Part shown: positions 454 to 25,089 of the stretch, in pieces
How positions within the stretch are numbered: the stretch's first letter is position 1
Layout: each line of letters starts with the position of its first letter
DNA from: a virus
Length of the DNA stretch: 30,200 bases
Strand: one strand, 5' to 3'
UHGV virus genome: UHGV-0253090
Position numbers and translations under genes: made by a program
Notes under the pieces: generated by a model
What the model saw: only the letters and a program-made list of their open reading frames with translations
Told to the model about the DNA's origin: nothing
Databases searched by the model: none

Positions 454-1449
454 TTATGGACGCATTATGGACATTCCTGACACCGGGTTAAGAGTCACAG
501 CATCTTGTAAGAAATCCGGTGCAAAGTGTGCGTAGGTCATAGTTTGCTGAATGTTAGAATGACCCAGGATGCGCTGCAATGTGATTATGTTACCTCCATT
601 CATTATAAAATGTGTGGCAAATGTATGCCTCAAAACATGCACTGCCTGTCCGTCAGGTAAATCGGGTTTTACTTCCCTGAGAGCGTTGCGCACTTTGTAG
701 TAACTGGCATTAAAAAGCCTGCCAGAATTTTTGGTTTTGATCCGTTTAATCAAGTCCTGCGAAACGGGAATTGTCCTGCGCTTTCCGTTTTTAGTTTTCA
801 TAAACGTAACCATCTGGTTAATGATGTGTTCAGCTTTTAAATTAGACACTTCACTCCAGCGTCCACCAGTAGAAAGGCAGACCAGAGTCGCATTTAATTC
901 ATCACCATCAAGCATGGATAACAGTCGCGTAATCTCTTCACTGGACAAAAAAGCCATTTCTGTAACAGCTTCACGTAACCGCTTAACCTCACGGAACGGG
1001 TTGTGAGAGTGGTATTCACCGGCGTCAATTAACTTGGTGAACATCCCGCTCATTATTGCCAGATGCCGATTTACGCTGGCTGGTTTTAGACCATCGTTCA
1101 TCATTACAACGCGATAATCAGTTATCGTTTTCTTTGTTAGCTGGTCAGCTCTGGACACTCCCATTTCTGCAAATTTGGCGATTATTGTCGTTAAACGCCC
1201 CCGTTCAATATCTCCACGCTCATGTGATTTTCCGTGATATATCCACCATCTGCCTAACAACTCTGTAAGAGTTCGGCGGTCGGCTGGTTTCTCCAGCCAC
1301 TCTTTGTTGTGGTAGTTAACCAGTACATGACGTTCGAATGCTTGAGCTTCACCTTTAGTTTTAAATTTCCGCCTGATACGTTTTCCATCTGCACCCTGCG
1401 GTCTGACGTCCACTTCATAACGACCATCATCGAGCTTTTTAATAGACAT
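454..1449 (-). CDS. int: P2-type tyrosine integrase
   Basis: 331-aa ORF starting MSIKKLDDGRYEV, with C-terminal HxLRHTFAT...LGH...Y catalytic region typical of P2/186 integrases. GGAGGG SD 4 nt upstream of the ATG. Lies next to the host junction. Confidence 0.92.
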   Translation of the reverse strand: MSIKKLDDGRYEVDVRPQGADGKRIRRKFKTKGEAQAFERHVLVNYHNKEWLEKPADRRTLTELLGRWWIYHGKSHERGDIERGRLTTIIAKFAEMGVSRADQLTKKTITDYRVVMMNDGLKPASVNRHLAIMSGMFTKLIDAGEYHSHNPFREVKRLREAVTEMAFLSSEEITRLLSMLDGDELNATLVCLSTGGRWSEVSNLKAEHIINQMVTFMKTKNGKRRTIPVSQDLIKRIKTKNSGRLFNASYYKVRNALREVKPDLPDGQAVHVLRHTFATHFIMNGGNIITLQRILGHSNIQQTMTYAHFAPDFLQDAVTLNPVSGMSIMRP

Positions 1450-1935: not shown

Positions 1936-2307
1936 ATGGAGGATAGCAAAGTGACGACAAATGTAGAAATTTCTTGTCCAACTAGCGATGAGGCAAGTTT
2001 CGAAAATGAAGCCAAACGTAAAAGCATTCAGATTTCAGAGCGCCCATCTGATTTGCTGTCGAAAGAAGGTTTTGCTCTTTACATCGGTAAGACACCACGC
2101 GCGGTGGCTGAAATGGCTAAAGCAGGAAAGCTGCCAGCCTTCTACATGACAGACCCATTAAAACCAAGAGGGAAAGCTGAATTATGGATTAATCGCCGTG
2201 AGTGGGACAAGTACGCAGCCCAACTGGTTGATGAAGCTCCGACAGAATGGCATGACTGGAAAAATCGCATTAGTTACAGCAAATCAAGACATGGCCGTGC
2301 GGCTTAA
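1936..2307 (+). CDS. cox: Cox-like excisionase / transcriptional regulator; start uncertain (ATG 1936 or GTG 1951 after GGAGGA)
   Basis: Core YIGKTPRAVAEMAKAGKLPAFYMTDP aligns with the P2 Cox HTH region (LIGKSTGAVRRMIDKGKLPVIDMTDP). Divergent from C as in P2. The ORF is about 30 aa longer at the N-terminus than P2 Cox. Confidence 0.75.
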   Translation: MEDSKVTTNVEISCPTSDEASFENEAKRKSIQISERPSDLLSKEGFALYIGKTPRAVAEMAKAGKLPAFYMTDPLKPRGKAELWINRREWDKYAAQLVDEAPTEWHDWKNRISYSKSRHGRAA

Positions 2308-3799: not shown

Positions 3800-4071
3800 G
3801 TATTCGTATTGAAATTGGCGAACGTTATGTCGTTACCAGTGACAGCTTTCAGTTTATTCTCCACGAGAAAAAGAGAGCGGAAAGCGGTAAAAACGCCGGT
3901 CAGGAATGGCTGTCGGTGGTTGGTTATTACCCGAAATTAAGCCAGCTCGTTTCCGGCCTGATGCATCACGATATTCTGACCGGAAGCGCAAAATCTTTTG
4001 CCGATTTAAACGCGCAGGTTGAGCAACTCAGCAAGCGTTGTTCAGAGGCTTTTGGCTCATATGGCCGTTAA
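3796..4071 (+). CDS. Hypothetical early protein (P2 orf83-like)
   Basis: 91-aa ORF, ATGA overlap with the zinc-finger ORF. Ends overlapping the A start. Confidence 0.7.
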   Translation: MSIRIEIGERYVVTSDSFQFILHEKKRAESGKNAGQEWLSVVGYYPKLSQLVSGLMHHDILTGSAKSFADLNAQVEQLSKRCSEAFGSYGR

Positions 4072-6334
4072 AGCCTCCGGGCGTTTTGTCCCTCCGTCAG
4101 CATTTGCCGCAGGTACCGGTAAGACGTTTACCGGTGCTTATGCATGGAACGCGCCACGCGAGGCTGTCGGGCGCGAAAGACCCCTTACACGTGACGAGAT
4201 GCGTCAGGTGCAAGGTGTTTTATCCACGATTAACCGTCTGCCTTACTTTTTGCGCTCGCTGTTTACTTCACGCTATGACTACATCCGGCGCAATAAAAGC
4301 CCGGTGCACGGGTTTTATTTCCTCACATCCACTTTTCAGCGTCGTTTATGGCCGCGCATTGAGCGTGTGAATCAGCGCCATGAAATGAACACCGACGCGT
4401 CGTTGCTGTTTCTGGCAGAGCGCGACCAGTATGCGCGCCTGCCGGGGATGAATGACAAGGAGCTGAAAAAGTTTGCCGCCCGAATCTCATCGCAGCTTTT
4501 CATGATGTATGAGGAACTCTGCGATGCCTGGGTGGATGCGCATGGCGAAAAAGAATCGCTGTTTACGGATGAGGCGCAGGCTCACCTGTATGGTCATGTT
4601 GCTGGCGCTGCACGTGCTTTCAATATTTCCCCGCTTTACTGGAGAAAATACCGTAAAGGGCAGATGACCACGAGGCAGGCATATTCTGCCATTGCCCGCC
4701 TGTTTAACGATGAGTGGTGGATTAGTCAGCTTAAAGGCCAGCGTATGCGCTGGCATGAGGCGTTACTGATTGCTGTCGGGGAGGTGAATAAAGACCGTTC
4801 TCCTTATGCCAGTAAACATGCCATTCGTGATGTGCGTGCACGCCGCCAGGCAAATCTGGAATTTCTTAAATCGTGTGACCTTGAAAACAGGGAAACCGGC
4901 GAGCGCATCGACCTTATCAGTAAGGTGATGAGCAGTATTTCTAATCCTGAAATTCGCCGGATGGAGCTGATGAACACCATTGCCGGTATTGAGCGTTACG
5001 CCGCCGCAGAGGGTGATGTGGGGATGTTTATCACGCTTACCGCGCCGTCAAAGTATCACCCGACACGTCAGGTCGGAAAAGGCGAAAGTAAAACCGTCCA
5101 GCTAAATCACGGCTGGAACGATGAGGCATTTAATCCAAAGGATGCGCAGCGTTATCTCTGCCATATCTGGAGCCTGATGCGCACGGCATTCAAGGATAAT
5201 GATTTACAGGTCTACGGTTTGCGTGTCGTCGAGCCACACCACGACGGAACGCCGCACTGGCATATGATGCTTTTTTGTAATCCACGCCAGCGTAACCAGA
5301 TTATCGAAATCATGCGTCGCTATGCGCTCAAAGAGGATGGCGACGAAAGAGGAGCCGCGCGAAACCGTTTTCAGGCAAAACACCTTAACCAGGGCGGTGC
5401 TGCGGGGTATATCGCGAAATACATCTCAAAAAACATCGATGGCTATGCACTGGATGGTCAGCTCGATAACGATACCGGCAGACCGCTGAAAGACACTGCT
5501 GCGGCTGTTACCGCATGGGCGTCAACGTGGCGCATCCCACAATTTAAAACGGTTGGTCTGCCGACAATGGGGGCTTACCGTGAACTACGCAAATTGCCTC
5601 GCGGCGTCAGCATTGCTGATGAGTTTGACGAACGCGTTGAGGCTGCACGTGCCGCCGCAGACAGTGGTGATTTTGCGTTGTATATCAGCGCGCAGGGTGG
5701 GGCAAATGTTCCGCGTGATTGTCAGACTGTCAGGGTTGCCCGTAGTCCGTCGGATGACGTTAACGAGTACGAGGAAGAAGTCGAGAGAGTGGTCGGCATT
5801 TACGCGCCGCATCTCGGCGCGCGTCATATTCATATCACCAGAACGACGGACTGGCGCATTGTGCCGAAAGTTCCGGTCGTTGAGCCTTTGACTTTAAAAA
5901 GCGGCATCGCCGCGCCTCGGAGTCCTGTCAATAACTGTGGAAAGCTCACCGGTGGTGATACTTCGTTACCGGCTCCCACGCCTTCTGAGCACGCCGCAGC
6001 AGTGCTTAATCTGGTTGATGACGGTGTTATCGAATGGAATGACCCGGAGGTCGTGAGGGCGCTCAGAAGCGCATTAAAACACGGCCTGAGAAGACCAAAC
6101 CGTCAGCAAAGAAACGGAAGCCCGTTAAAACCGCATGAAATAGCGCCATCGGCCAGACTTACCCGGTCGGAACGAATGCAAATTACCCGTATCCGCGTTG
6201 ACCTTGCTCAGAACGGTATCAGGCCGCAGCGATGGGAGCTTGAGGCGCTGGCGCGTGGGGCAACCGTAAATTATGACGGGAAAAAATTCACGTATCCGAT
6301 TGCTGAAGAGTGGTCGGGATTTTCCTCAAACTAA
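4061..6334 (+). CDS. A: Replication initiation endonuclease A (rolling-circle Rep, P2 gpA-like)
   Basis: About 757 aa from ATG 4061 (MAVKASGRFVPP...), matching my recall of the P2 gpA N-terminus and length (761 aa). Contains a HxH-like PHHDGTPHWHMML and the conserved GYIAKYISK region of rolling-circle initiators. The ORF track start at 4019 is a TTG. Confidence 0.9.
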   Translation: MAVKASGRFVPPSAFAAGTGKTFTGAYAWNAPREAVGRERPLTRDEMRQVQGVLSTINRLPYFLRSLFTSRYDYIRRNKSPVHGFYFLTSTFQRRLWPRIERVNQRHEMNTDASLLFLAERDQYARLPGMNDKELKKFAARISSQLFMMYEELCDAWVDAHGEKESLFTDEAQAHLYGHVAGAARAFNISPLYWRKYRKGQMTTRQAYSAIARLFNDEWWISQLKGQRMRWHEALLIAVGEVNKDRSPYASKHAIRDVRARRQANLEFLKSCDLENRETGERIDLISKVMSSISNPEIRRMELMNTIAGIERYAAAEGDVGMFITLTAPSKYHPTRQVGKGESKTVQLNHGWNDEAFNPKDAQRYLCHIWSLMRTAFKDNDLQVYGLRVVEPHHDGTPHWHMMLFCNPRQRNQIIEIMRRYALKEDGDERGAARNRFQAKHLNQGGAAGYIAKYISKNIDGYALDGQLDNDTGRPLKDTAAAVTAWASTWRIPQFKTVGLPTMGAYRELRKLPRGVSIADEFDERVEAARAAADSGDFALYISAQGGANVPRDCQTVRVARSPSDDVNEYEEEVERVVGIYAPHLGARHIHITRTTDWRIVPKVPVVEPLTLKSGIAAPRSPVNNCGKLTGGDTSLPAPTPSEHAAAVLNLVDDGVIEWNDPEVVRALRSALKHGLRRPNRQQRNGSPLKPHEIAPSARLTRSERMQITRIRVDLAQNGIRPQRWELEALARGATVNYDGKKFTYPIAEEWSGFSSN

Positions 6335-6506
6335 TAATGATGTTTGACAAAGAGATGTTGATGAGACTAAAAATTTTATTTGTCTGTATAACCATTCGGT
6401 TAGAGTACAATAGTTCCGAGTGATAGGAATACAAATAATGACTAAGTTTTCAACATGCGATTGTTATGGGTTGAATTAAAGGTAAATAACTATGTTAAAT
6501 AATATA

Positions 6507-6539
6507 GGGCAAGAGGGTGTTCTTGCCCTTTGTTTATTT
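6507..6539. terminator. Bidirectional rho-independent terminator between A and the SIR2 gene
   Basis: Perfect 8-bp stem GGGCAAGA (6507-6514) / TCTTGCCC (6521-6528) with a 6-nt loop, T-rich on both sides. Sits immediately 3' of the minus-strand SIR2 gene stop (6538-6540). Confidence 0.6.
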
Positions 6540-9132
6540 AAGCGGCGATTTCAATGTTGCTTTTATATTTTAAGAGGGCGTTTTTGGGAACTGCTGGCCA
6601 GGCTGAGTATCTATAATAGTTCATATAATCTTTCTCTATCAGTGTTTTTAGCTGTTTGTTAGCTTGAACTTCATCACCAAGTAAAAAGAATGCACACATG
6701 GCCGTAGCCCCTTTTGAATTGTTATGTGCTAAAACTGAATTTATCTCATTCTTTTTAATGTCTTGCCCTTCTTTTTTCTTGGCAACTTCTCTATTGATTA
6801 TTAAAACATCTTTTTCCCTGTAATCTTTAATTTTTTCAAGGTTTTCATTAGCGATTTTAATTGTTTCTTTATAGTTTCCTGCAAGAAGATTGGTATAAGA
6901 TTTTCCTAAGATATAATCACTAAACCCGTAACCTTTTTCATAAGCTTCATCAAGAAGAACTATCGCTTTATCATAATCGCCGTTTAAAGATGCAATATCA
7001 GATTTTAATTTTAAAATGGTGATTTCTGATTTGTTTCTTGGCAGGCTATCAATAAACTCCTCTGCCAATTTGATGTTGTTTTTATCAATTAGTAATATGT
7101 CTACAATACTGTTTGTATGATTATTTTTCCACGGGCAGTTCATGGCTTCTTTGACTAATTCAATACCAGCTTTGATGTCCCTGTTGCAGCCTATCTCATA
7201 TCGAGCTTTAAATATAATGAAAGGAGCAATTCTTGCAATGTCGCTCTCTTCTTCATATTTATCAATAAAGCCTTTCATCAGGTTGGGAGTGTTTTCATCG
7301 AAGTCTGTTTCAAATAAAGATAGATGCAGTTGTGTTAAATATTTTAATATGTTTCTTTTTTTATTTTTTGATGATGTTTTGTAAGCGTTGGATAATGTAT
7401 CTATGCATAATAATGTATCTTCTTTCTTTTGCAATGTGCAGGTGAAATCAGTATATAACGACAAATATGTATCGTGAGTAGGGTTGACCTCTTTTATTTT
7501 GTCAAGCAGTTCTTGTATTAATTTATTACAATCTTTCTTATCATGGCTTGATTGATGTTTTGTCTTTATTGCGTCATATTTTATTCTCCATGCAAAATTA
7601 TCCAGATCACTGCTTTGGAGTAAGCTTTTATCAATTAAATCATGTATTTCATCAAAGGTTATTAATTCTTCATCATTATTTTCTAGATGTAGAATAGCAA
7701 TTCTGCTTAAATGATTCTTAAGATTTATGCTATATGGGAATTTTTCAAGCAATCCCTTAAGGTAATGTATTTTTGCCTTTAGATCTGTGAATATGTTTGC
7801 CCTTGAAAGGGCGTAATTTATATTAAATTCATCAAGAGCTATAAGATTATCACTAATTTCTAATGCTGACTTTGTGTCTTTTTGTTCTTCTTTTATTTCA
7901 ATTAGCCTACGCAGATATTTAGACTTTATATTGTCACTATCAGCGTTATTGATTAATTCATTCAGTTTTGACTCTGCGTTTAAATAATTTTTATTTCTAA
8001 TGAGGTTGTCAATGTATAACAAATTCTTAAAATCTTCTTCGGGGATCTTTTGATCGTCTAAATCACTTTGGGATAGCTCGTTTATTAATGACGATATGTC
8101 ATGTGTTAGAGTGTGTTTTTTTAATTTTGAGAGGTCAGATTTGATAATGCCATTTTTAGATAAGTTGTACTCATCTGTTATAAAGTTTTGGATCATCATC
8201 TCTCTTTTTGTGGATTTTTGATTCCCTCCAAAAGAGAGTGCGCAGCCTAATTCTAGGGCTAGTTCTGCCATCAATTCATCAAAACCTTCTATTTCTACCC
8301 AATAAACTTTATCTTGACCTAGAAGCCTAATAAGTTCTGGTGGGATGGAGTCATTTTTTCTAACGCACCAGTATACTCCATTTCTTAGGTAATCGTCCTG
8401 TTTTAATAAATGTTTTAAAACATCCATGATAGAGCTGTCATTGCCAGCATAACCAACAAAAATAATCCCGTATTCTTTAGTGAATTCAGTTAGTTTTTCA
8501 CGAGTGTTACCTTCTAATGACTCGGTTTCTTTTAAAGAGCTTTTTATGCTATCAAATAAATAATCACCATGTAATTTTATTATTTTTGGCCTTGAAGAAG
8601 TAATTGAGACGCCTTTAATTGATGAATCATGTGCACATAATAATGGTCTGTCAGAAGAAAATTGATAAAATGCTTCATTTATTAAATCGTCAAAATTTGT
8701 TGTGAAGACAGTATCAAAAAACTTTGATTCAAATAGTTCAACGAGATAAGCATATCCAATTGAAGGTAATTTTTTGTCTACTTGAAGCTCAACAAATCTT
8801 CTGCGTTGAGATGGAAGATCAAATTTCTTTTCAAAAAGAGATGAGTATTCATTGTTTGGGTCGTACCAGACTGGATGGTTTTTGGATAGCCATTTTTTAG
8901 CTTCTTCGGCATCGACATATTCTTGATTGGATAGTCTTGTGTATATCTCTTCTCTCCATTTCGCTACTAACTCTTGACCAGTTTTTATTCCAGATGTAAC
9001 GGATGCGCCAGCACCAAGAAAAAGTGAATAGTTAGGTGATGTACCTGATTTGATTTTTATATAATCAGCTAAATCTTTAACGGTTCTTTTTTTGGCAACC
9101 AGTTGTTCCTTGGTAGTATCACGATCAGACAT
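6538..9132 (-). CDS. SIR2-domain protein (predicted NAD+ hydrolase) with long alpha-helical, TPR-like C-terminal region; candidate single-gene anti-phage defence protein
   Basis: 864 aa. N-terminal about 300 aa carry SIR2_2-type motifs LFLGAGASVTSG (Rossmann GAGxS), TTNFDDL (catalytic N) and KLHGD (catalytic H), then IFVGYAGND. The remainder is K/N/D/E/L-rich helical repeat sequence with no Walker A motif. Strong GGAGGG SD. Markedly AT-rich compared with flanking phage genes. Sits in the P2 tin/old slot between A and cos. Confidence 0.8.
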   Translation of the reverse strand: MSDRDTTKEQLVAKKRTVKDLADYIKIKSGTSPNYSLFLGAGASVTSGIKTGQELVAKWREEIYTRLSNQEYVDAEEAKKWLSKNHPVWYDPNNEYSSLFEKKFDLPSQRRRFVELQVDKKLPSIGYAYLVELFESKFFDTVFTTNFDDLINEAFYQFSSDRPLLCAHDSSIKGVSITSSRPKIIKLHGDYLFDSIKSSLKETESLEGNTREKLTEFTKEYGIIFVGYAGNDSSIMDVLKHLLKQDDYLRNGVYWCVRKNDSIPPELIRLLGQDKVYWVEIEGFDELMAELALELGCALSFGGNQKSTKREMMIQNFITDEYNLSKNGIIKSDLSKLKKHTLTHDISSLINELSQSDLDDQKIPEEDFKNLLYIDNLIRNKNYLNAESKLNELINNADSDNIKSKYLRRLIEIKEEQKDTKSALEISDNLIALDEFNINYALSRANIFTDLKAKIHYLKGLLEKFPYSINLKNHLSRIAILHLENNDEELITFDEIHDLIDKSLLQSSDLDNFAWRIKYDAIKTKHQSSHDKKDCNKLIQELLDKIKEVNPTHDTYLSLYTDFTCTLQKKEDTLLCIDTLSNAYKTSSKNKKRNILKYLTQLHLSLFETDFDENTPNLMKGFIDKYEEESDIARIAPFIIFKARYEIGCNRDIKAGIELVKEAMNCPWKNNHTNSIVDILLIDKNNIKLAEEFIDSLPRNKSEITILKLKSDIASLNGDYDKAIVLLDEAYEKGYGFSDYILGKSYTNLLAGNYKETIKIANENLEKIKDYREKDVLIINREVAKKKEGQDIKKNEINSVLAHNNSKGATAMCAFFLLGDEVQANKQLKTLIEKDYMNYYRYSAWPAVPKNALLKYKSNIEIAA

Positions 9133-9444
9133 TTTCCCTCCATAAATTATGTGTGAGAAGTGAGAATAATCCTAGGTGTGGTTATTTTTACATGAAATTC
9201 AATGGGTTTTCGTTTTTCTTACATGCGTTTTGTGACTGAGATCAAGCTATGAGGGAGGAATGTTCTTTTATTGTTCGCTAGAGGCTAATTGGCTAATAAG
9301 CTTTTACTAATCGTTTATGATGTACCATAGCGTTGAATGATTTTGCATGCATTTGTCAGATGTTTACTGATGTTGTTATGTCAGAGCTGGTGCGCTTTAG
9401 GTTATTTCATGCAACTGCATTAAAACCACCACATGAAGCGGGCG

Positions 9445-9463
9445 GGCGAGGCGGGGAAAGCAC
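9445..9463. other. cos site (19-nt cohesive end region, P2-type)
   Basis: GGCGAGGCGGGGAAAGCAC matches my recall of the P2 cohesive end, and lies where cos is expected, next to the portal gene Q. Confidence 0.6.
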
Positions 9464-9605
9464 TGCGCGCTGGCGGTGGTGCTGATTTTATTTTTTCAGC
9501 GTCTGAGCGCGTCGTGATGGCGTTTAGATTGTTCGCCGGGGCGTTTGTGTGTCTGCGGGATGTTTTGTGCGGTGGTGAGCGTGTGAGGGCGTGATGGCGG
9601 GTTGT

Positions 9606-9626
9606 AAAAAGCCGCCCGTAGGCGGC
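9606..9626 (-). terminator. Rho-independent terminator downstream of Q
   Basis: Stem GCCGCC (9611-9616) / GGCGGC (9621-9626) with loop CGTA. On the minus-strand transcript it is followed by UUUUU (plus-strand aaaaa 9606-9610), a few nt after the Q stop. Confidence 0.6.
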
Positions 9627-9631
9627 GATGT

Positions 9632-10666
9632 TCAGCCGTTGTCAGTGTCCAGTGAGTAGTTTTTAAAGCGGATGACCTCCTGACCGAGCCAGCCGTTTAT
9701 CTCGCGGATCCTGTCCTGTAGCGGGATAAGCTCATTGCGGACAAAGACCTTTGCCACTTTCTCAATATCACCCAGCGACCCGACGTTCTCCGGCTTGCCG
9801 CCCATCAACTGAAAGGGGATGCGGTGCGCGTCCAGCAGGTCAGCGGCGCTGGCTTTTTTGATATTAAAAAAATCGTCCTTCGTTGCGACCTCACTGAGCG
9901 GGATAATTTTAATGCCGTCGGCTTTCCCATGTGGGGCATAGAGGAACAGATTTTTAAAGTTGTTGCGGCCTTTCGACTTAACCATGTTTTCGCGAAGCAT
10001 TTCGATATCGTTGCGATCCTGCACGGCATCGGTGACGTACATGATGTATCCGGCATGAGCGCCGTTTTCGTAATACTTGCGGCGGAACAGCGTGGCCGAC
10101 TCATTCAGCCAGGCAGAGTTAAGGGCGCTGAGATATTCCGGCAGGCCGTACAGCTCCTGATTAATATCCGGCTCCAGCAGGTGAAACACGGAGCCGGGAG
10201 CGAAGGCTGTCGGCTCGTTGAAGGACGGCACCCACCAGTAAACATCCTCCTCCACGCCACGGCGGGTATATTTTGCCGGTGAGGTTTCCAGTCTGATGAC
10301 CTTACCGGTGGTGCTGTAACGCTTTTCCAGAAACGCATTACCGAACACCAGAAAATCCAGCACAAAGCGGCTGAAATCCTGCTGGGAAAGCCACGGGTGC
10401 GGGATAAATGTCGAGGCCAGAATATTGCGTTTGACGTAAATCGGCGAGCTGTGATGCACGGCAGCACGCAGGCTTTTCGCCAGACCGGTAAAGCTGACCG
10501 GCGGCTCATACCATCTGCCGTTACTGATGCACTCGACGTAATCCAGAATGTCACGGCGGTCGAGTACCGGCACCGGCTCACCAAAGGTGAATGCCTCCAT
10601 TTTCGGGGCGCTGGCGGTCATTTTTTTTGCCGCAGGTTGCGGTGTTTTCCCTTTTTTCTTGCTCAT
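9632..10666 (-). CDS. Q: Portal protein (P2 gpQ-like)
   Basis: 344 aa, same length as P2 gpQ. Adjacent to cos and divergent from the O operon. ATGA overlap with P. Confidence 0.9.
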   Translation of the reverse strand: MSKKKGKTPQPAAKKMTASAPKMEAFTFGEPVPVLDRRDILDYVECISNGRWYEPPVSFTGLAKSLRAAVHHSSPIYVKRNILASTFIPHPWLSQQDFSRFVLDFLVFGNAFLEKRYSTTGKVIRLETSPAKYTRRGVEEDVYWWVPSFNEPTAFAPGSVFHLLEPDINQELYGLPEYLSALNSAWLNESATLFRRKYYENGAHAGYIMYVTDAVQDRNDIEMLRENMVKSKGRNNFKNLFLYAPHGKADGIKIIPLSEVATKDDFFNIKKASAADLLDAHRIPFQLMGGKPENVGSLGDIEKVAKVFVRNELIPLQDRIREINGWLGQEVIRFKNYSLDTDNG

Positions 10667-19919: not shown

Positions 19920-20523
19920 TTCGCGACTGCTGCCGACCGGCTCATCACTGCTTGAAGTTGCCGCCGCAAAAGCCTGTGCGGAAATTGAAAAAACGCCGGT
20001 CAGTATTCGTGAGCTGTGGAACCCGGACACCTGCCCGGCAAATCTGCTGCCGTGGCTGGCGTGGTCATTTTCGGTTGACCGCTGGGATGATAAATGGCCG
20101 GAAGCGACAAAACGCGCTGTTATCCGCGATGCGTATTTCATTCACTGCCATAAGGGCACTATAGGCGCAATCCGGCGTGTGGTGGAGCCGCTCGGCTATC
20201 TGATTGAGGTGAGGGAGTGGTGGCAGCTCAACGAGGAGCCGGGGACGTTCCGTATCGTTGTTGGCGTGCTTGAGCAGGGTATTACCGAAGAAATGTATCA
20301 GGAGCTGGAGCGCCTAGTTGCTGATGCAAAACCGGCAAGCCGCCATCTGACGGGACTGGCTATCAGTTTAAGTACAACCGGCAACATTTTTGCCGGTGCG
20401 GGATGCTATCACGGTGACGCCCTGACGGTTTATCCCTACACCCCGGAGGCCATTATTGTCGGAGGGGATTATTTCCCGGCCTCGGCCATTCATTTAATTG
20501 ATAACCTGAGAGTAAACGCATGA
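19912..20523 (+). CDS. I: Baseplate protein I (P2 gpI-like)
   Basis: 203 aa. GGAGG SD. ATGA-type overlaps with both flanking genes. Position before the tail fibre. Confidence 0.8.
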
Positions 20524-21704
20524 CAGTGAAATACTACGCCATTCTGACTAATCAGGGCGCAGCACGGCTGGCTAACGCGACGATGCTCGGCAGTAAGCTG
20601 AATCTGACGCAAATGGCCGTTGGTGATGCGAATGGTGTCTTGCCGACACCAGACCCGGCACAGACAAAACTGATTAACCAGAAACGCATCGCGCCGCTGA
20701 ATCTTCTGAGTGTTGACCCGAACAACCAGAGCCAGATTATTGCGGAGCAAATCATCCCTGAGAACGAGGGCGGATTCTGGATCCGTGAGATTGGGCTTTA
20801 TGATGATGAAGGCGTACTCATTGCGGTGGCAAACTGCCCGGAAACGTACAAACCGCAGTTGCAGGAAGGAAGCGGTCGTACCCAGACTATCCGCATGATT
20901 CTGGTTGTCTCGAATACCGAAGCCATCACGCTGAAAATCGACCCGTCGGTGGTACTGGCGACCCGTAAATACGTGGATGATGAAGTCCTGGAATTAAGGC
21001 TGTATGTGGATGACCAGATGAGAAACCACATTGCCGCACAGGATCCTCATACCCAGTATGCGCAGAAACATAATCCGACATTTACCGGAGAACCAAAAGC
21101 GCCGACGCCTGCCGCAGGAAATAACACCACGCGGATTGCGACCACTGCGTTTGTTCAGGCCGCTATTACCGCTCTGATTAACGGTGCGCCAGCCACGCTG
21201 GACACACTGAAAGAAATTGCCGCAGCCATTAACAATGACCCGAAATTCAGTACCACCATTAACAATGCGCTGTCAGGTAAGCAGCCACTGGATGAGACGC
21301 TGACTCATTTGAGTGGAAAGGATGTAGCTGGTCTTCTCGCATACCTTGGTTTGGGAGAAGCGGCAAAACGGAATGTGGGCACAGGAGATAATCAGATACC
21401 GGATATGGGAGCATTCGCTTCTGGTTCGGGATGGTTCAGGCTACCAGGTGGATATATTGTTCAGTTTGGCACTTTTTCAGGAAACACGACCCGCTTTATC
21501 AGTGGACACTTCCCTATACCATTCCCTAATCGGCCGATGGTTTCAGTCAGTGTTATGTCTGATGCCGTTCAGTCAGACCCGTCGAATCCTGCCCCGCAGG
21601 TTTTGTCTGTAAATTTTGAACATATCAGTAATTCAGCGTGGCGTATGGCAACCAGTGATATCTCATATCAATACAGATTCAGTTATATTTCGATAGGACG
21701 GTAG
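20520..21704 (+). CDS. H: Tail fibre protein: constant N-terminal part plus variable C-terminal tip (current orientation of the invertible segment)
   Basis: 394 aa. The N-terminal region resembles Mu S/P1 S-type tail-fibre constant domains. The recombination site at 21334-21359 lies inside the reading frame, at the LGLGE codons. Confidence 0.8.
21334..21359. repeat. 26-bp DNA-invertase crossover site (left, within the tail-fibre gene)
   Basis: TTCTCGCATACCTTGGTTTGGGAGAA, an imperfect palindrome of the hix/gix/cix type. Shares TTGGTTTGGGAGAA with the reverse complement of the site at 23165-23190. Confidence 0.7.
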
Positions 21705-21706
21705 AA

Positions 21707-22147
21707 ATGCAGAAATATATTTTCAGTGCCGATAAAAATGCGTTTTTCCCTGTGGAGCTTAAAATCGCTTATCAGGAATCCGGCGAATGGCCCGGTGATG
21801 GAATCGAAATTGACGACACTGTTGCCGCCGAATTTATGAAGGAAGCACCAGAAGGAAAATACAGAGGCGTCATCGACGGAATGCCTGCATGGATTGATAT
21901 TCCACCGCCAACTCATGAGGAACAAATTGCCGCAGCCGAACTGGAAAAGCAGCAATTGATTAATCAGGTCAACGAATACATAAACAGTAAGCAATGGCCT
22001 GGTAAAGCGGCGATTGGTCGCCTGAAAGGTGAGGAACTGGCGCAATATAATTTGTGGCTGGATTATCTGGACACACTGGAACTGGTCGATACTTCCGGTG
22101 CGCCAGATATTGAATGGCCTACGCCTCCGGCAGTTCAGGCCAGATGA
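21707..22147 (+). CDS. Tail fibre assembly protein (Tfa, G/U-like), active-orientation copy
   Basis: 146 aa. Directly follows the tail-fibre stop. Typical tail-fibre assembly size and position. Confidence 0.75.
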   Translation: MQKYIFSADKNAFFPVELKIAYQESGEWPGDGIEIDDTVAAEFMKEAPEGKYRGVIDGMPAWIDIPPPTHEEQIAAAELEKQQLINQVNEYINSKQWPGKAAIGRLKGEELAQYNLWLDYLDTLELVDTSGAPDIEWPTPPAVQAR

Positions 22148-22712
22148 CATCCGGCGCGGTGCTGGTATCTGTTACCGTCACCGCGTCAATGTAATCCAGC
22201 ACGGCGTTAAGTCGGGTTGTTTCTGCCTGCGTCAGCTTCCGTCCGGCCTGTAATTTCAGTTGAATCAGACTGATGGAAGCCATTGCAGCATCAATCAGCG
22301 ACTGGCGCTGTGCTTCTGCCGCGTCTACTGCGGCACTATGCTGTGCCTCAGTATCTGTCACCCATTTCTCACCATCCCATTTATCGTATGGCGTTAACGG
22401 TGAAAGCGTGACATAACCGTCTTTGATGGCACCGATATAATCCACTGTAACAGCTGCGCCATTTTCGATTGAGTAAACAGTCTCATTGCGGTGGTCTTCT
22501 TCATGGCTCCATCCCTTACCCGTAAATACTGCCACTTTCCCCGGAATGTATTCGCCCGGGTCAATACCAGTAGAACAGGCGGGCATACTTACGCCAGTAT
22601 TAATATATTCATCAGACCAGCCCGTATATTCAGACGTTACTGCATCATAATAAAAACAACGCATATCACCCGGCACTGTAGCCAGCCCATTTTCATCAAA
22701 AACAGGTTTCAT
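22119..22712 (-). CDS. Tail fibre assembly protein (alternative copy, inverse orientation)
   Basis: 197 aa on the minus strand inside the invertible segment. Its 3' end overlaps the plus-strand tfa 3' end by 29 bp. Confidence 0.7.
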   Translation of the reverse strand: MKPVFDENGLATVPGDMRCFYYDAVTSEYTGWSDEYINTGVSMPACSTGIDPGEYIPGKVAVFTGKGWSHEEDHRNETVYSIENGAAVTVDYIGAIKDGYVTLSPLTPYDKWDGEKWVTDTEAQHSAAVDAAEAQRQSLIDAAMASISLIQLKLQAGRKLTQAETTRLNAVLDYIDAVTVTDTSTAPDVIWPELPEA

Positions 22713-23190
22713 TATGCAGCCCTCACAATATAATTAAAGGCGATGTTACGTGGACGGTTTTCATTAGCTGTTGGCACGACACGAGAGGCGTCGAATCCAA
22801 GGTCATCGGTTTTGTCTATAGTAGTTGTGTTATTCGGCATTCTCGCTGATCGTGTTCCTGCATCGTAAAAAGCCCCTCTGATTGCATCAAAAGACATACC
22901 GATCCCGCCATCTGCGAATCCCTCAATATTTCTTATTGCATCCCCCTGTGAAGATAATAATTGTCGCCCGGCATCCACTCCACGTCCGTCATCCCAGCCA
23001 CGAATAAATTCACCGCGTAAATCAGGCAATTTATTTGTCGGATAAACCTTTGCCAGTTCCGGGTATTCTTCAGCAGAAAAAGCCGCACCATTGCATTTTA
23101 GCCAGCCTGTTGGCGGAGTGGCGGAAGGCCACGGGACAGGCACACCAACGGGTAATGCCGAACCTTCTCCCAAACCAACGTTTAAGAAAA
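22712..23190 (-). CDS. Alternative tail-fibre C-terminal tip (promoterless; expressed only after inversion fuses it to the constant H region)
   Basis: Minus-strand ORF reading ...LGLGEGSALPVGVPVPWPSATPPTGWLKCNGAAFS.... The LGLGE codons coincide with the crossover site, which preserves frame with H. The ORF track extends to 23218, but that part is junction sequence. Confidence 0.65.
23165..23190. repeat. 26-bp DNA-invertase crossover site (right)
   Basis: TTCTCCCAAACCAACGTTTAAGAAAA. Its reverse complement TTTTCTTAAACGTTGGTTTGGGAGAA is the inverted partner of the 21334-21359 site. Confidence 0.7.
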
Positions 23191-23245
23191 TGCAGAGATA
23201 GCGGCTAACTGGCATCATCTCCGGTTTTTATTCAGGGGATCCGTC

Positions 23246-23839
23246 ATGCTTATTGGCTATGTCCGCGTATCAACAAATGACCAGAACACGGAATTGCAGC
23301 GTAACGCACTGGAGTGTGCAGGATGTGAGCTGATTTTTGAGGACAAAATCAGCGGCACGAAGTCCGACAGACCGGGGCTGAAAAAACTGCTCAGAACATT
23401 ATCGGAAGGTGACACTCTGGTTGTCTGGAAGCTGGACAGGCTGGGGCGTAGTATGCGGCATCTGGTCATTCTGGTTGAGGAACTGCGCGAACGCGGCGTT
23501 AATTTTCGCAGCCTGACGGATGCTATTGATACCAGCACGCCGATGGGGCGTTTTTTCTTTCATGTGATGGGTGCCCTGGCTGAAATGGAGCGAGAACTCA
23601 TTGTCGAGAGGACACGCGCCGGACTGGAAGCGGCCAGAGCCAAAGGTCGTATTGGTGGCAGACGACCGAAACTCACCGCGAGTGAGTGGGAGCAGGCCGG
23701 GCGTTTGCTGGCTGCAGGGGAGTCACGTCAACGCGTGGCACTGATTTTTGATATTGGTCTGTCCACGCTCTATAAAAAATTTCCCTCATCAGCGACAAAG
23801 AATAAATTGTGTCATCCCTTAGCCAACCGGGACAAATAG
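23246..23839 (+). CDS. Serine DNA invertase (Hin/Gin/Cin/Pin family)
   Basis: 197 aa, MLIGYVRVSTNDQNTELQRNALECAGCELIFEDKISGTKSDRPGL...VVWKLDRLGRSMRHL..., nearly co-linear with e14 Pin / Mu Gin including the catalytic Ser in the VRVST motif. AGGGGA SD. Confidence 0.92.
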   Translation: MLIGYVRVSTNDQNTELQRNALECAGCELIFEDKISGTKSDRPGLKKLLRTLSEGDTLVVWKLDRLGRSMRHLVILVEELRERGVNFRSLTDAIDTSTPMGRFFFHVMGALAEMERELIVERTRAGLEAARAKGRIGGRRPKLTASEWEQAGRLLAAGESRQRVALIFDIGLSTLYKKFPSSATKNKLCHPLANRDK

Positions 23840-23898: not shown

Positions 23899-25089
23899 AT
23901 GAGTGACTATCATCACGGCGTGCAGGTGCTGGAGATTAACGACGGCACCCGTGTCATTTCCACCGTATCCACGGCCATTGTCGGCATGGTCTGCACGGCC
24001 AGCGATGCGGATGCGGAAACCTTCCCCCTCAATAAACCGGTGCTGATTACCAATGTGCAGAGCGCAATTGCAAAGGCCGGTAAAAAAGGCACGCTGGCGG
24101 CATCGTTGCAGGCTATCGCCGACCAGTCAAAACCGGTCACCGTTGTTGTGCGCGTGGAGGACGGCACCGGCGACGACGAAGAAACGAAGCTCGCGCAGAC
24201 CGTTTCCAATATCATCGGCACCACTGACGAAAACGGTCAGTACACCGGACTGAAAGCCCTGCTGGCGGCAGAGTCGGTAACCGGTGTTAAACCGCGTATT
24301 CTTGGTGTGCCGGGACTGGATACCAAAGAGGTGGCTGTAGCACTGGCATCAGTCTGTCAGAAGCTGCGCGCTTTCGGGTATATCAGCGCATGGGGCTGTA
24401 AGACCATTTCCGAGGTGAAAGCCTACCGCCAGAATTTCAGCCAGCGTGAGCTGATGGTCATCTGGCCGGATTTCCTCGCATGGGATACGGTCACCAGTAC
24501 CACCGCCACCGCGTATGCCACCGCTCGTGCGCTGGGGCTGCGCGCTAAAATCGACCAGGAGCAGGGCTGGCATAAAACGCTGTCCAACGTCGGGGTGAAC
24601 GGTGTTACCGGCATCAGCGCATCTGTATTCTGGGATTTGCAGGAGTCCGGCACCGATGCTGACCTGCTTAACGAGTCAGGCGTCACTACGCTGATTCGCC
24701 GCGACGGTTTCCGCTTCTGGGGTAACCGTACCTGCTCTGATGACCCACTGTTTCTCTTTGAAAACTACACCCGTACCGCGCAGGTGCTGGCCGACACGAT
24801 GGCTGAGGCGCACATGTGGGCGGTGGACAAGCCCATCACCGCAACGCTGATTCGCGACATCGTTGACGGCATCAATGCCAAATTCCGTGAGCTGAAAACA
24901 AACGGCTATATCGTGGATGGCTCATGCTGGTTCAGCGAAGAATCCAACGATGCGGAAACCCTCAAGGCCGGAAAACTGTATATCGACTACGACTATACAC
25001 CGGTGCCTCCTCTCGAAAACCTGACCCTGCGCCAGCGTATTACCGATAAATACCTGGCGAATCTGGTCACCTCGGTTAACAGCAATTAA
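23899..25089 (+). CDS. FI: Tail sheath protein (P2 gpFI-like)
   Basis: 396 aa, same length as P2 FI. Confidence 0.9.
   Translation: MSDYHHGVQVLEINDGTRVISTVSTAIVGMVCTASDADAETFPLNKPVLITNVQSAIAKAGKKGTLAASLQAIADQSKPVTVVVRVEDGTGDDEETKLAQTVSNIIGTTDENGQYTGLKALLAAESVTGVKPRILGVPGLDTKEVAVALASVCQKLRAFGYISAWGCKTISEVKAYRQNFSQRELMVIWPDFLAWDTVTSTTATAYATARALGLRAKIDQEQGWHKTLSNVGVNGVTGISASVFWDLQESGTDADLLNESGVTTLIRRDGFRFWGNRTCSDDPLFLFENYTRTAQVLADTMAEAHMWAVDKPITATLIRDIVDGINAKFRELKTNGYIVDGSCWFSEESNDAETLKAGKLYIDYDYTPVPPLENLTLRQRITDKYLANLVTSVNSN

Follow-up and report, generated by a model that had tools for sequence, protein, structure and literature searches.

A cargo hotspot of P2-like prophages has been described (Rousset et al. 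2022, PMC9122126; Vassallo et al. 2022, PMC9519451); it adjoins cos, and its 18,150 loci fall into 1,650 arrangements (Rousset et al. 2022, PMC9122126). In the viral genome UHGV-0253090, studied here as one stretch of 30,200 nucleotides (nt; the window), the corresponding slot holds a single large gene, called here the SIR2-TPR gene after the two parts of its product. The locus raises the question whether this gene is cargo or a core part of the phage and, if cargo, what it does for the prophage that carries it. The SIR2-TPR gene is variable cargo. By analogy with characterised systems, we think that it probably encodes a stand-alone SIR2-TPR abortive-infection NADase, an enzyme that would destroy nicotinamide adenine dinucleotide (NAD+), carried in a mobile one-gene cassette in the cos-proximal slot of a P2-like prophage. 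We infer the anti-phage activity from domain content, architecture and location.

A one-gene cassette beside cos

An earlier note on this DNA had described the interval 6335–9444 as an AT-rich, horizontally acquired island in the tin/old slot of P2, holding one self-contained 2.6-kb gene on the opposite strand, with a strong Shine-Dalgarno sequence and a terminator of its own and with no other plausible open reading frame (ORF) of at least 60 amino acids (aa). Base composition bears out the first of these claims. The guanine-plus-cytosine (GC) content of 6335–9444 is 32.6%, against 53.7% for the remainder of the window, and none of 418 other 3110-nt windows fell below 43.5% (mean 54.1%, standard deviation 4.0). 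In the composition profile the island is a trough at 6500–9500, with 28–34% GC against 52–60% on either side. Codon usage departs in the same way: GC at third codon positions (GC3) is 27% in the SIR2-TPR gene against 55–71% in gpA, gpQ and gpP, and the codons ATA, CTA and TTA are many times commoner in it than in those three genes. P2 prophages with other cargo are homologous to the window up to 6322–6324 and again from 9378–9416 onwards, the right edge of the island lying at 9377 to 9416 according to the prophage compared. The island is thus real, but the interval first given for it ran slightly too far to the right; the variable segment is about 6325 to 9377/9416. The features of the slot are as follows.

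4061–6334, plus strand: left flank, P2 replication endonuclease gene A, with its start taken from the RefSeq annotation of a 98.4% identical locus (L001)
6325–9416, no strand: variable AT-rich cargo island in the P2 gpA–cos slot (hotspot 1), delimited by homology breaks; GC 32.2% against 53.7%
6506–6529, no strand: GC-rich hairpin terminator, possibly used in both directions, from a terminator scan of both strands
6538–9132, minus strand: SIR2-TPR gene, 864 aa plus stop codon, ATG start, the sole long ORF in the island
9136–9141, minus strand: Shine-Dalgarno sequence GGAGGG, three bases 5' of the ATG, read from the sequence
9142–9377, minus strand: upstream non-coding part of the cassette, presumed promoter or regulatory region, from an alignment of five alleles
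9447–9465, no strand: right flank, 19-nt P2 cos cohesive-end sequence, read from the sequence and invariant in five loci
9632–10666, minus strand: right flank, portal gene Q; a terminator of its own lies at 9611–9626

Gene A, ending at 6334, is followed by the SIR2-TPR gene, by the sequence GGCGAGGCGGGGAAAGCAC at 9447–9465, which is invariant across all five aligned alleles and which we take to be the P2 cos cohesive end, and by portal gene Q at 9632–10666. The RefSeq annotation of matching loci gives the same order. This is the tin/old slot, as had been claimed. The old and tin genes of P2 are likewise AT-rich prophage cargo in the slot between gene A and cos/Q, and old-tin confers anti-phage immunity (Rousset et al. 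2022, PMC9122126); their proteins are unrelated to the SIR2-TPR protein.

To what extent the slot varies was seen by comparing the interval between gene A and cos among E. coli prophages. Megablast with the island, at a coverage of at least 80%, found it in 19 of 5426 complete E. coli genomes. All of these copies are chromosomal and annotated 'SIR2 family protein', and they fall into five levels of identity (99.8, 94.8, 91.8, 86.6 and 75.8%). The adjacent cos and Q backbone was present in 1558 of the same genomes (coverage at least 80%), so that only about 1% of such prophages hold the SIR2-TPR gene. Where the context is annotated, the copies lie in P2-like prophages, flanked by the replication endonuclease gene on one side and the portal gene on the other, and these prophages occupy differing attachment sites, beside pflA in one strain and yegR in another. 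Four backbones with other cargo, sampled down the match ranking, held a 3'-5' exonuclease with a HIRAN protein, two methyltransferases with an ATP-binding protein, a DEAD/DEAH helicase (locus L085, E. coli CM IVRI KOL-1), and a helix-turn-helix (HTH) protein with a reverse transcriptase. The slot is therefore variable, and the comparison shows the SIR2-TPR gene to be cargo and not a conserved core component of the phage. An ISEc12 element (IS21 family) interrupts the replication endonuclease gene A of the L085 prophage.

The 75.8% allele is homologous from 6501 onwards, a few bases ahead of the hairpin; in the megablast search, the 94.8–75.8% alleles as a group were matched from 6498–6501. The transferable unit is therefore the terminator, the gene and about 245 nt of upstream sequence. 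The left junction is itself variable: 176 nt separate gene A from the cassette here (6325–6500), against about 546 nt of unrelated and unannotated sequence in the prophage with the 75.8% allele (L002 7455–8000, E. coli F5505-C1). Outside complete E. coli genomes, 14 viral contigs in IMG/VR have relatives of 61–100% identity in the gpA–gpQ slot. Some of these contigs are divergent P2-like phages, with gpA 35–78% identical, and more distant relatives lie on IMG/VR contigs without P2 genes. Megablast of the island against the INPHARED phage collection gave no match, so no deposited phage genome carries it. Of 37 full-length relatives examined in species-representative genomes, most are not beside P2 genes. 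Given its GC content, its codon usage and its relatives outside P2 contexts in many phyla, the SIR2-TPR gene is foreign to the prophage, as expected of horizontal acquisition.

The island has one gene. The SIR2-TPR ORF runs on the minus strand, opposite to gene A, and a 99.8% identical copy is annotated 'SIR2 family protein' in RefSeq; the GG core of its Shine-Dalgarno sequence is retained in five of five alleles. The only other ORF of at least 60 aa, at 7142–7384, is antisense to the SIR2-TPR gene and would encode 80 aa. It is interrupted by stop codons in two of four divergent alleles and is therefore not a gene. Nine bases past the SIR2-TPR stop codon lies the hairpin at 6506–6529, with T-rich runs on both strands; its RNA fold has a free energy of -18.1 kcal/mol (z -7.1 against shuffles). 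It could end the leftward SIR2-TPR transcript and the rightward gene A transcript too. Upstream of the gene, a 21-nt block at 9332–9352 (minus strand ATGCATGCAAAATCATTCAAC) is invariant in five of five alleles and may be a regulatory site. The block includes the palindrome ATGCAT, and it is unchanged even in the 75.8% allele, whose neighbouring upstream sequence has diverged.

The SIR2-TPR protein, its family and its nearest relatives

The 864-aa protein has three parts, given here from its N terminus.

8233–9036, minus strand: SIR2_2 NAD-binding catalytic domain (aa 33–300), with GAGAS at aa 40–44, TTNFDD with Asn146 and KLHGDY with His188
8041–8232, minus strand: conserved helical linker (aa 301–364), from invariant alignment columns and from AlphaFold secondary structure and predicted local distance difference test (pLDDT) values
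6565–8040, minus strand: all-helical TPR-like solenoid (aa 365–856) of about 28 helices in the AlphaFold model, presumed sensor

Pfam SIR2_2 (PF13289) matched aa 141–261 with an expectation value (E) of 4e-15 (56.6 bits against a cutoff of 24.5); Pfam TPR matches were sub-threshold only. GAGAS, Asn146 and His188 are invariant in 27 of 27 aligned family members, so the catalytic motifs are intact. The AlphaFold model (mean pLDDT 84.8) has a Rossmann-type SIR2 domain, with its last strands by residue 281, a helical linker at 308–355 and the solenoid at 365–856 with pLDDT mostly 88–96. Neither a Walker A motif in the protein nor beta strands past residue 281 in the model were found, and it therefore has no STAND NTPase (nucleoside triphosphatase); a nucleic-acid-binding domain was not detected by the domain search or in the model. 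The stretches 189–207 and about 345–357 are invariant in sequence and poorly modelled, the latter holding the invariant linker motif D345-S347-I350-E352 in a stretch of low confidence; we regard both as candidate regulatory or interface loops. As modelled, then, the protein is an anti-phage-type SIR2 domain fused to a superhelix of the TPR class. Canonical deacetylase sirtuins scored below anti-phage sirtuins in the structural comparison, and the best structural matches of parts of the solenoid include Rap, PlcR and MalT-type TPR sensors.

The family to which this protein belongs is large and widespread. A word-indexed search with the full-length query gave 1734 clusters (90% identity) at E<=0.001, some of which share the SIR2 domain only. 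Among the best 120 of these, almost all are 860–890 aa long with full-length coverage; they come from Enterobacterales, Aeromonas, Vibrio, Shewanella, Pseudoalteromonas and others and, where named, are called 'SIR2 family protein'. A genome scan added full-length relatives of 30–40% identity in Betaproteobacteria, Bacteroidota, Verrucomicrobiota, Firmicutes and SAR324. Full-length members, their length kept at about 865 aa, come from Gamma- and Betaproteobacteria, Bacteroidota, Verrucomicrobiota and Firmicutes. The whole protein matches PHROG 14359 (1612.9 bits, residues 1–864 against profile 1–864), which is annotated 'unknown function'.

Is the solenoid used elsewhere, joined to other effectors? 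A phmmer search with aa 365–864 against 1.84 billion representatives gave 108 matches. The full-length ones (about 850–915 aa) were all aligned at about 365–860, and the others were shorter proteins or fragments; the mid-length matches that were checked were N-terminally truncated SIR2 proteins or had no recognisable N-terminal domain. At single-sequence sensitivity, no swapping of effectors on the solenoid was detected. Since its matches are nearly confined to proteins of about 865 aa, the solenoid belongs to the SIR2-TPR architecture. The SIR2 part behaves differently. The same SIR2 subtype occurs in proteins of 520–640 aa with other C-terminal regions and in Sir2-APAZ proteins, so that one effector type has been joined to several sensors.

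The 520–640-aa proteins (loci L064–L081, for example L068 7968–9821 and L070 7989–9563) were picked up by the motifs of the SIR2-TPR family; they are 38–51% identical over aa 1–340 and come from Dehalococcoidia, Vibrio, Planctomycetota, Balneola and a Thermoproteota archaeon. We considered whether they are Sir2-APAZ proteins and rejected this, the PADLOC profiles Aga_SIR2 and PDC-S65 matching them mainly over the SIR2 part. They are probably further unclassified SIR2 defence candidates.

We also asked if any gene travels with the SIR2-TPR gene. No neighbour gene family was present in more than 5 of the 37 diverse loci. The SIR2-TPR gene therefore functions alone, in keeping with the earlier picture of a self-contained gene.

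Among the named systems, the closest relative of the SIR2 domain is Sir2-APAZ of SPARSA (profile E 9e-29, PADLOC 2e-59), whose chains were the top three Foldseek matches in PDB, over the SIR2 domain only. A profile built from 27 diverse family members for the PDB search matched the Geobacter sulfurreducens Sir2-APAZ protein (PDB 8jkz, 8in8, 8y80) over residues 35–297. TTNFDD and K(L/I)HGD align with the Geobacter Sir2 chain, in which N142 corresponds to Asn146. The likeness ends there. The SPARSA profiles Aga_SIR2 matched only at positions 6–281 of 558, which is their SIR2 part; the APAZ domain is missing, the C-terminal two thirds of our protein being the TPR solenoid; and there is no adjacent Argonaute gene, the island being single-gene and no partner family being kept in the 37 loci.

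Next in the Foldseek search came dozens of DSR2 chains with whole-length alignments, Avs5 also being among the matches. DSR2 of Bacillus subtilis is likewise one chain, with an N-terminal SIR2 domain, a helical middle region and a C-terminal alpha-solenoid. It is described as SIR2, MID and alpha-solenoid, with a phage tail tube protein binding the C-terminal solenoid and so activating the NADase (PMC11850899, PMC10973363). DSR2 is also characterised by tetrameric assembly. The Foldseek alignment with the 864-aa protein is full length (probability 1.0, E about 7e-8). The DSR2 chains matched are 915–1002 residues long against 864 aa here, where the repeats are TPR-like, and the SIR2 domain here is on a SPARSA-like branch, unlike that of DSR2. 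The PADLOC models for DSR, Avs, ThsA and HerA-associated proteins gave no match at E up to 1. Unlike Avs5 (AVAST type 5, a SIR2-STAND NTPase-repeat sensor), our protein has no STAND NTPase, Walker A motif or PADLOC Avs match. Neither the SLOG domain of Thoeris ThsA and its partner ThsB nor the HerA partner of Nezha/SIR2-HerA was found by the domain search, by PADLOC or in the 37 loci. The PADLOC candidate PDC-S65 has the same SIR2 subtype (E 6e-26), matched at profile positions 32–341 of 592 only; in PDC-S65 and in the 520–640-aa relatives alike, only the first 340 or so residues match, and the C-terminal regions are shorter and different. The SIR2-TPR protein is thus not a member of DSR2, SPARSA, Avs5, Thoeris, SIR2-HerA or PDC-S65, a defining feature of each being absent. 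Among characterised proteins, the overall layout of the model recurs only in DSR2 and, with an NTPase in addition, in Avs5. By analogy, its closest functional counterpart would be DSR2, which it is most like.

Proposed action and its alternatives

From the activation of DSR2 by a tail tube protein and the NAD+-depleting role of SPARSA Sir2, we propose the following course of events, in which NADase chemistry, trigger, activation through oligomerisation and phage resistance are all argued by analogy. In the uninfected lysogen, the SIR2-TPR protein would be present at a low level, with its SIR2 domain kept inactive. When a competing phage infects, the variable TPR solenoid would bind a component made by that phage, most likely an abundant protein. 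Binding would shift the conformation or oligomeric state of the protein, and the shift would be relayed through the conserved linker (aa 301–364). The SIR2 domain, relieved of inhibition, possibly via oligomerisation, would then be turned on as an NAD+ hydrolase, and the collapse of NAD+ would kill or arrest the infected cell, which would then cease to sustain phage growth. Such an abortive infection would shield the lysogen population and, with it, the prophage.

Several observations argue that the gene is a defence gene. It sits in a hotspot that has been experimentally validated (PMC9122126, PMC9519451), it is rare and swappable among E. coli prophages, and it recurs in the gpA–gpQ slot of the IMG/VR contigs. 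GAGxS, Asn146 and His188 are invariant in a protein of DSR2-like layout. There is no conserved partner gene, and defence genes lie nearby in other genomes, as described below. The pattern of conservation within the protein points the same way. All five E. coli alleles have an intact 864-aa ORF, and dN/dS, the ratio of nonsynonymous (dN) to synonymous change, is 0.06–0.15 overall in the four divergent ones; purifying selection therefore acts on the protein, which is functional. Mean column entropy in the 27-member alignment is 0.80 for SIR2, 1.46 for the linker and 1.9–2.2 for the solenoid, and among the E. coli alleles dN of the solenoid is 2–3 times that of SIR2, rising in the 91.8% allele to about 8 times. 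A conserved SIR2 domain with a variable solenoid is the signature of an immune sensor. Four substitutions, A445T, F513I, T566A and V800A, set the protein of the window apart from the 99.8% RefSeq allele, all in the solenoid, where synonymous differences number zero. These are suggestive and may reflect recent selection on the sensor, or chance, the numbers being too small to interpret.

A variable solenoid need not bind a phage protein. The protein might be a defence NADase whose solenoid guards a host component or senses a peptide, a small molecule or a nucleic-acid-bound state. The Rap, PlcR and MalT-type sensors matched by the solenoid bind short peptides or small ligands, and the nearest relatives of the SIR2 domain act in nucleic-acid-guided systems. 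We nevertheless think such indirect sensing unlikely, since the strong variation of the solenoid, seen among close alleles as well as family-wide, is more in keeping with a foreign, rapidly evolving target than with a host protein or metabolite that is conserved, and no nucleic-acid-binding domain was detected.

The chemistry might also be other than that proposed. The SIR2 domain would then use NAD+, without depleting it, to modify a specific target in the phage or the host, by ADP-ribosylation or deacylation, or to make a signalling nucleotide. Against this, the nearest characterised relatives (SPARSA Sir2, ThsA, DSR2, Avs5 and Nezha Sir2) are described as NAD+-consuming, and the 37 loci have no conserved adjacent effector gene that could read a signal; we consider it improbable.

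Does the gene serve defence at all? The two nearest ORFs on each side of the family loci, 139 proteins in all, were scanned at E<=1e-10. Known or candidate defence families recurred among these neighbours: dGTPase, mad3, AbiD, a reverse transcriptase of the DRT kind, restriction and methylase genes of type II, DarG, SoFic, PD-T4-2, NsnA and several PDC candidates. The SIR2-TPR gene might instead serve lysogenic conversion, regulation or phage fitness, acting for example on host NAD metabolism or acetylation, or be selfish cargo without benefit. The P2 slot does hold partition systems and cytolethal distending toxin as well (Rousset et al., PMC9122126), and the family has no known phenotype. 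Still, the domain type, the SIR2-plus-repeat layout, the variable C terminus, the patchy distribution and the defence neighbours match those of immune genes, and canonical deacetylase sirtuins scored lower than the anti-phage ones, so that we hold a non-defence function to be distinctly improbable. That the protein works as SPARSA does and depends on an unlinked partner gene, Argonaute-like or other, is hardly credible: its best SIR2 matches in sequence and structure are indeed the pAgo-associated Sir2-APAZ proteins, but they are confined to the SIR2 part, the remainder being a TPR solenoid and not APAZ, and the island has a single gene, with no partner family conserved in the 37 loci.

Some points weigh against an abortive-infection NADase. 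PADLOC assigned no named system to the protein, and NCBIfam has no matching model. The global template modelling (TM) score to DSR2 is only about 0.2, so that the likeness is architectural only; we attribute the low score to the flexibility of solenoids. Neither PADLOC nor the PDB profile search, at E up to 1, detected any sequence similarity to DSR2. A SIR2_2 domain might, in principle, carry out ADP-ribosyl transfer or make a signal molecule instead of plain NAD+ hydrolysis. A sensor borne by a prophage must be assumed not to fire on P2's own proteins. A scan for consensus sigma-70 promoters upstream of the SIR2-TPR gene gave no match on the coding strand, and no promoter was therefore located. 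The defence-gene neighbours, counted without a formal background control, are supportive only, and the openly searchable literature (subscription-only sources excluded) held no experimental report on the SIR2-TPR family. The stand-alone NADase nonetheless accounts best for the location, layout and variability of the gene.

A broader proposal can be put only tentatively, at slightly less than even weight: the SIR2-TPR proteins would be a large, uncharacterised, multi-phylum family of NTPase-free immune receptors, with the protein studied here as its E. coli representative, in which a SPARSA-type NADase is wired to a TPR solenoid that recognises phage proteins. They would then be a third, independently assembled solution of the SIR2-repeat-sensor kind beside DSR2 and Avs5, with a new trigger. 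Activation might also take a new form, through the invariant, poorly modelled loops at aa 189–207 and 345–357.

Prior record, significance and other parts of the prophage

Much of the setting is established: the P2 hotspot, SIR2-based single-protein defence, the effector chemistry, the sensor-effector logic and one listed allele. In Table S5A of Rousset et al. 2022 (PMC9122126), among the P2 loci, allele WP_124831363 is listed as 'SIR2_2'. This is the 86.6% allele, found in strain EC3. The SIR2-TPR family is absent from the systems validated in PMC9122126 or PMC9519451, and the listed allele is apparently untested. The only SIR2 construct cloned by Rousset et al., pFR88, was considered as a possible counterpart and set aside; it is of P4-hotspot origin and encodes an unrelated protein that starts MPNNYHQYIEDV. 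The SIR2-TPR architecture is not mentioned in the papers on defence discovery by DefensePredictor, by language models or by a domain-centric approach.

The SIR2-TPR gene is a good and easily testable defence candidate, of the type and in the place that a specialist would expect. If active, it would extend the known range by a compact system that depletes NAD+ with a single gene, without opening a new category, and would show that a TPR sensor can drive a SPARSA-type SIR2 effector with neither Argonaute nor NTPase. Because its five natural alleles (77% to 99.5% identity) differ mostly in the sensor, it would offer a tractable E. coli model for a new phage trigger. For phage therapy, it would be one more prophage-borne barrier that could matter when the E. 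coli strains to be treated carry the gene.

Elsewhere in the window, a second region of lower GC (40–44%) lies at 501–2000, at the left end of the prophage, with the integrase (454–1449, minus strand) and the immunity/cox region. At 20520–23839 is an invertible tail-fibre segment of the Mu G / P1 C type, which directly precedes a 396-aa ORF at 23899–25089. It is bracketed by 27-nt inverted repeats (21334–21360 and 23164–23190, 81% complementary) that look like recombination sites. The genes of these two regions are as follows.

1936–2307, plus strand: cox
20520–21704, plus strand: tail-fibre gene
21707–22147, plus strand: fibre-assembly gene
22119–22712, minus strand: second Caudo_TAP gene
22712–23218, minus strand: 168-aa Collar-domain ORF without a fibre N terminus
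23246–23839, plus strand: serine invertase with Resolvase and HTH_7 domains

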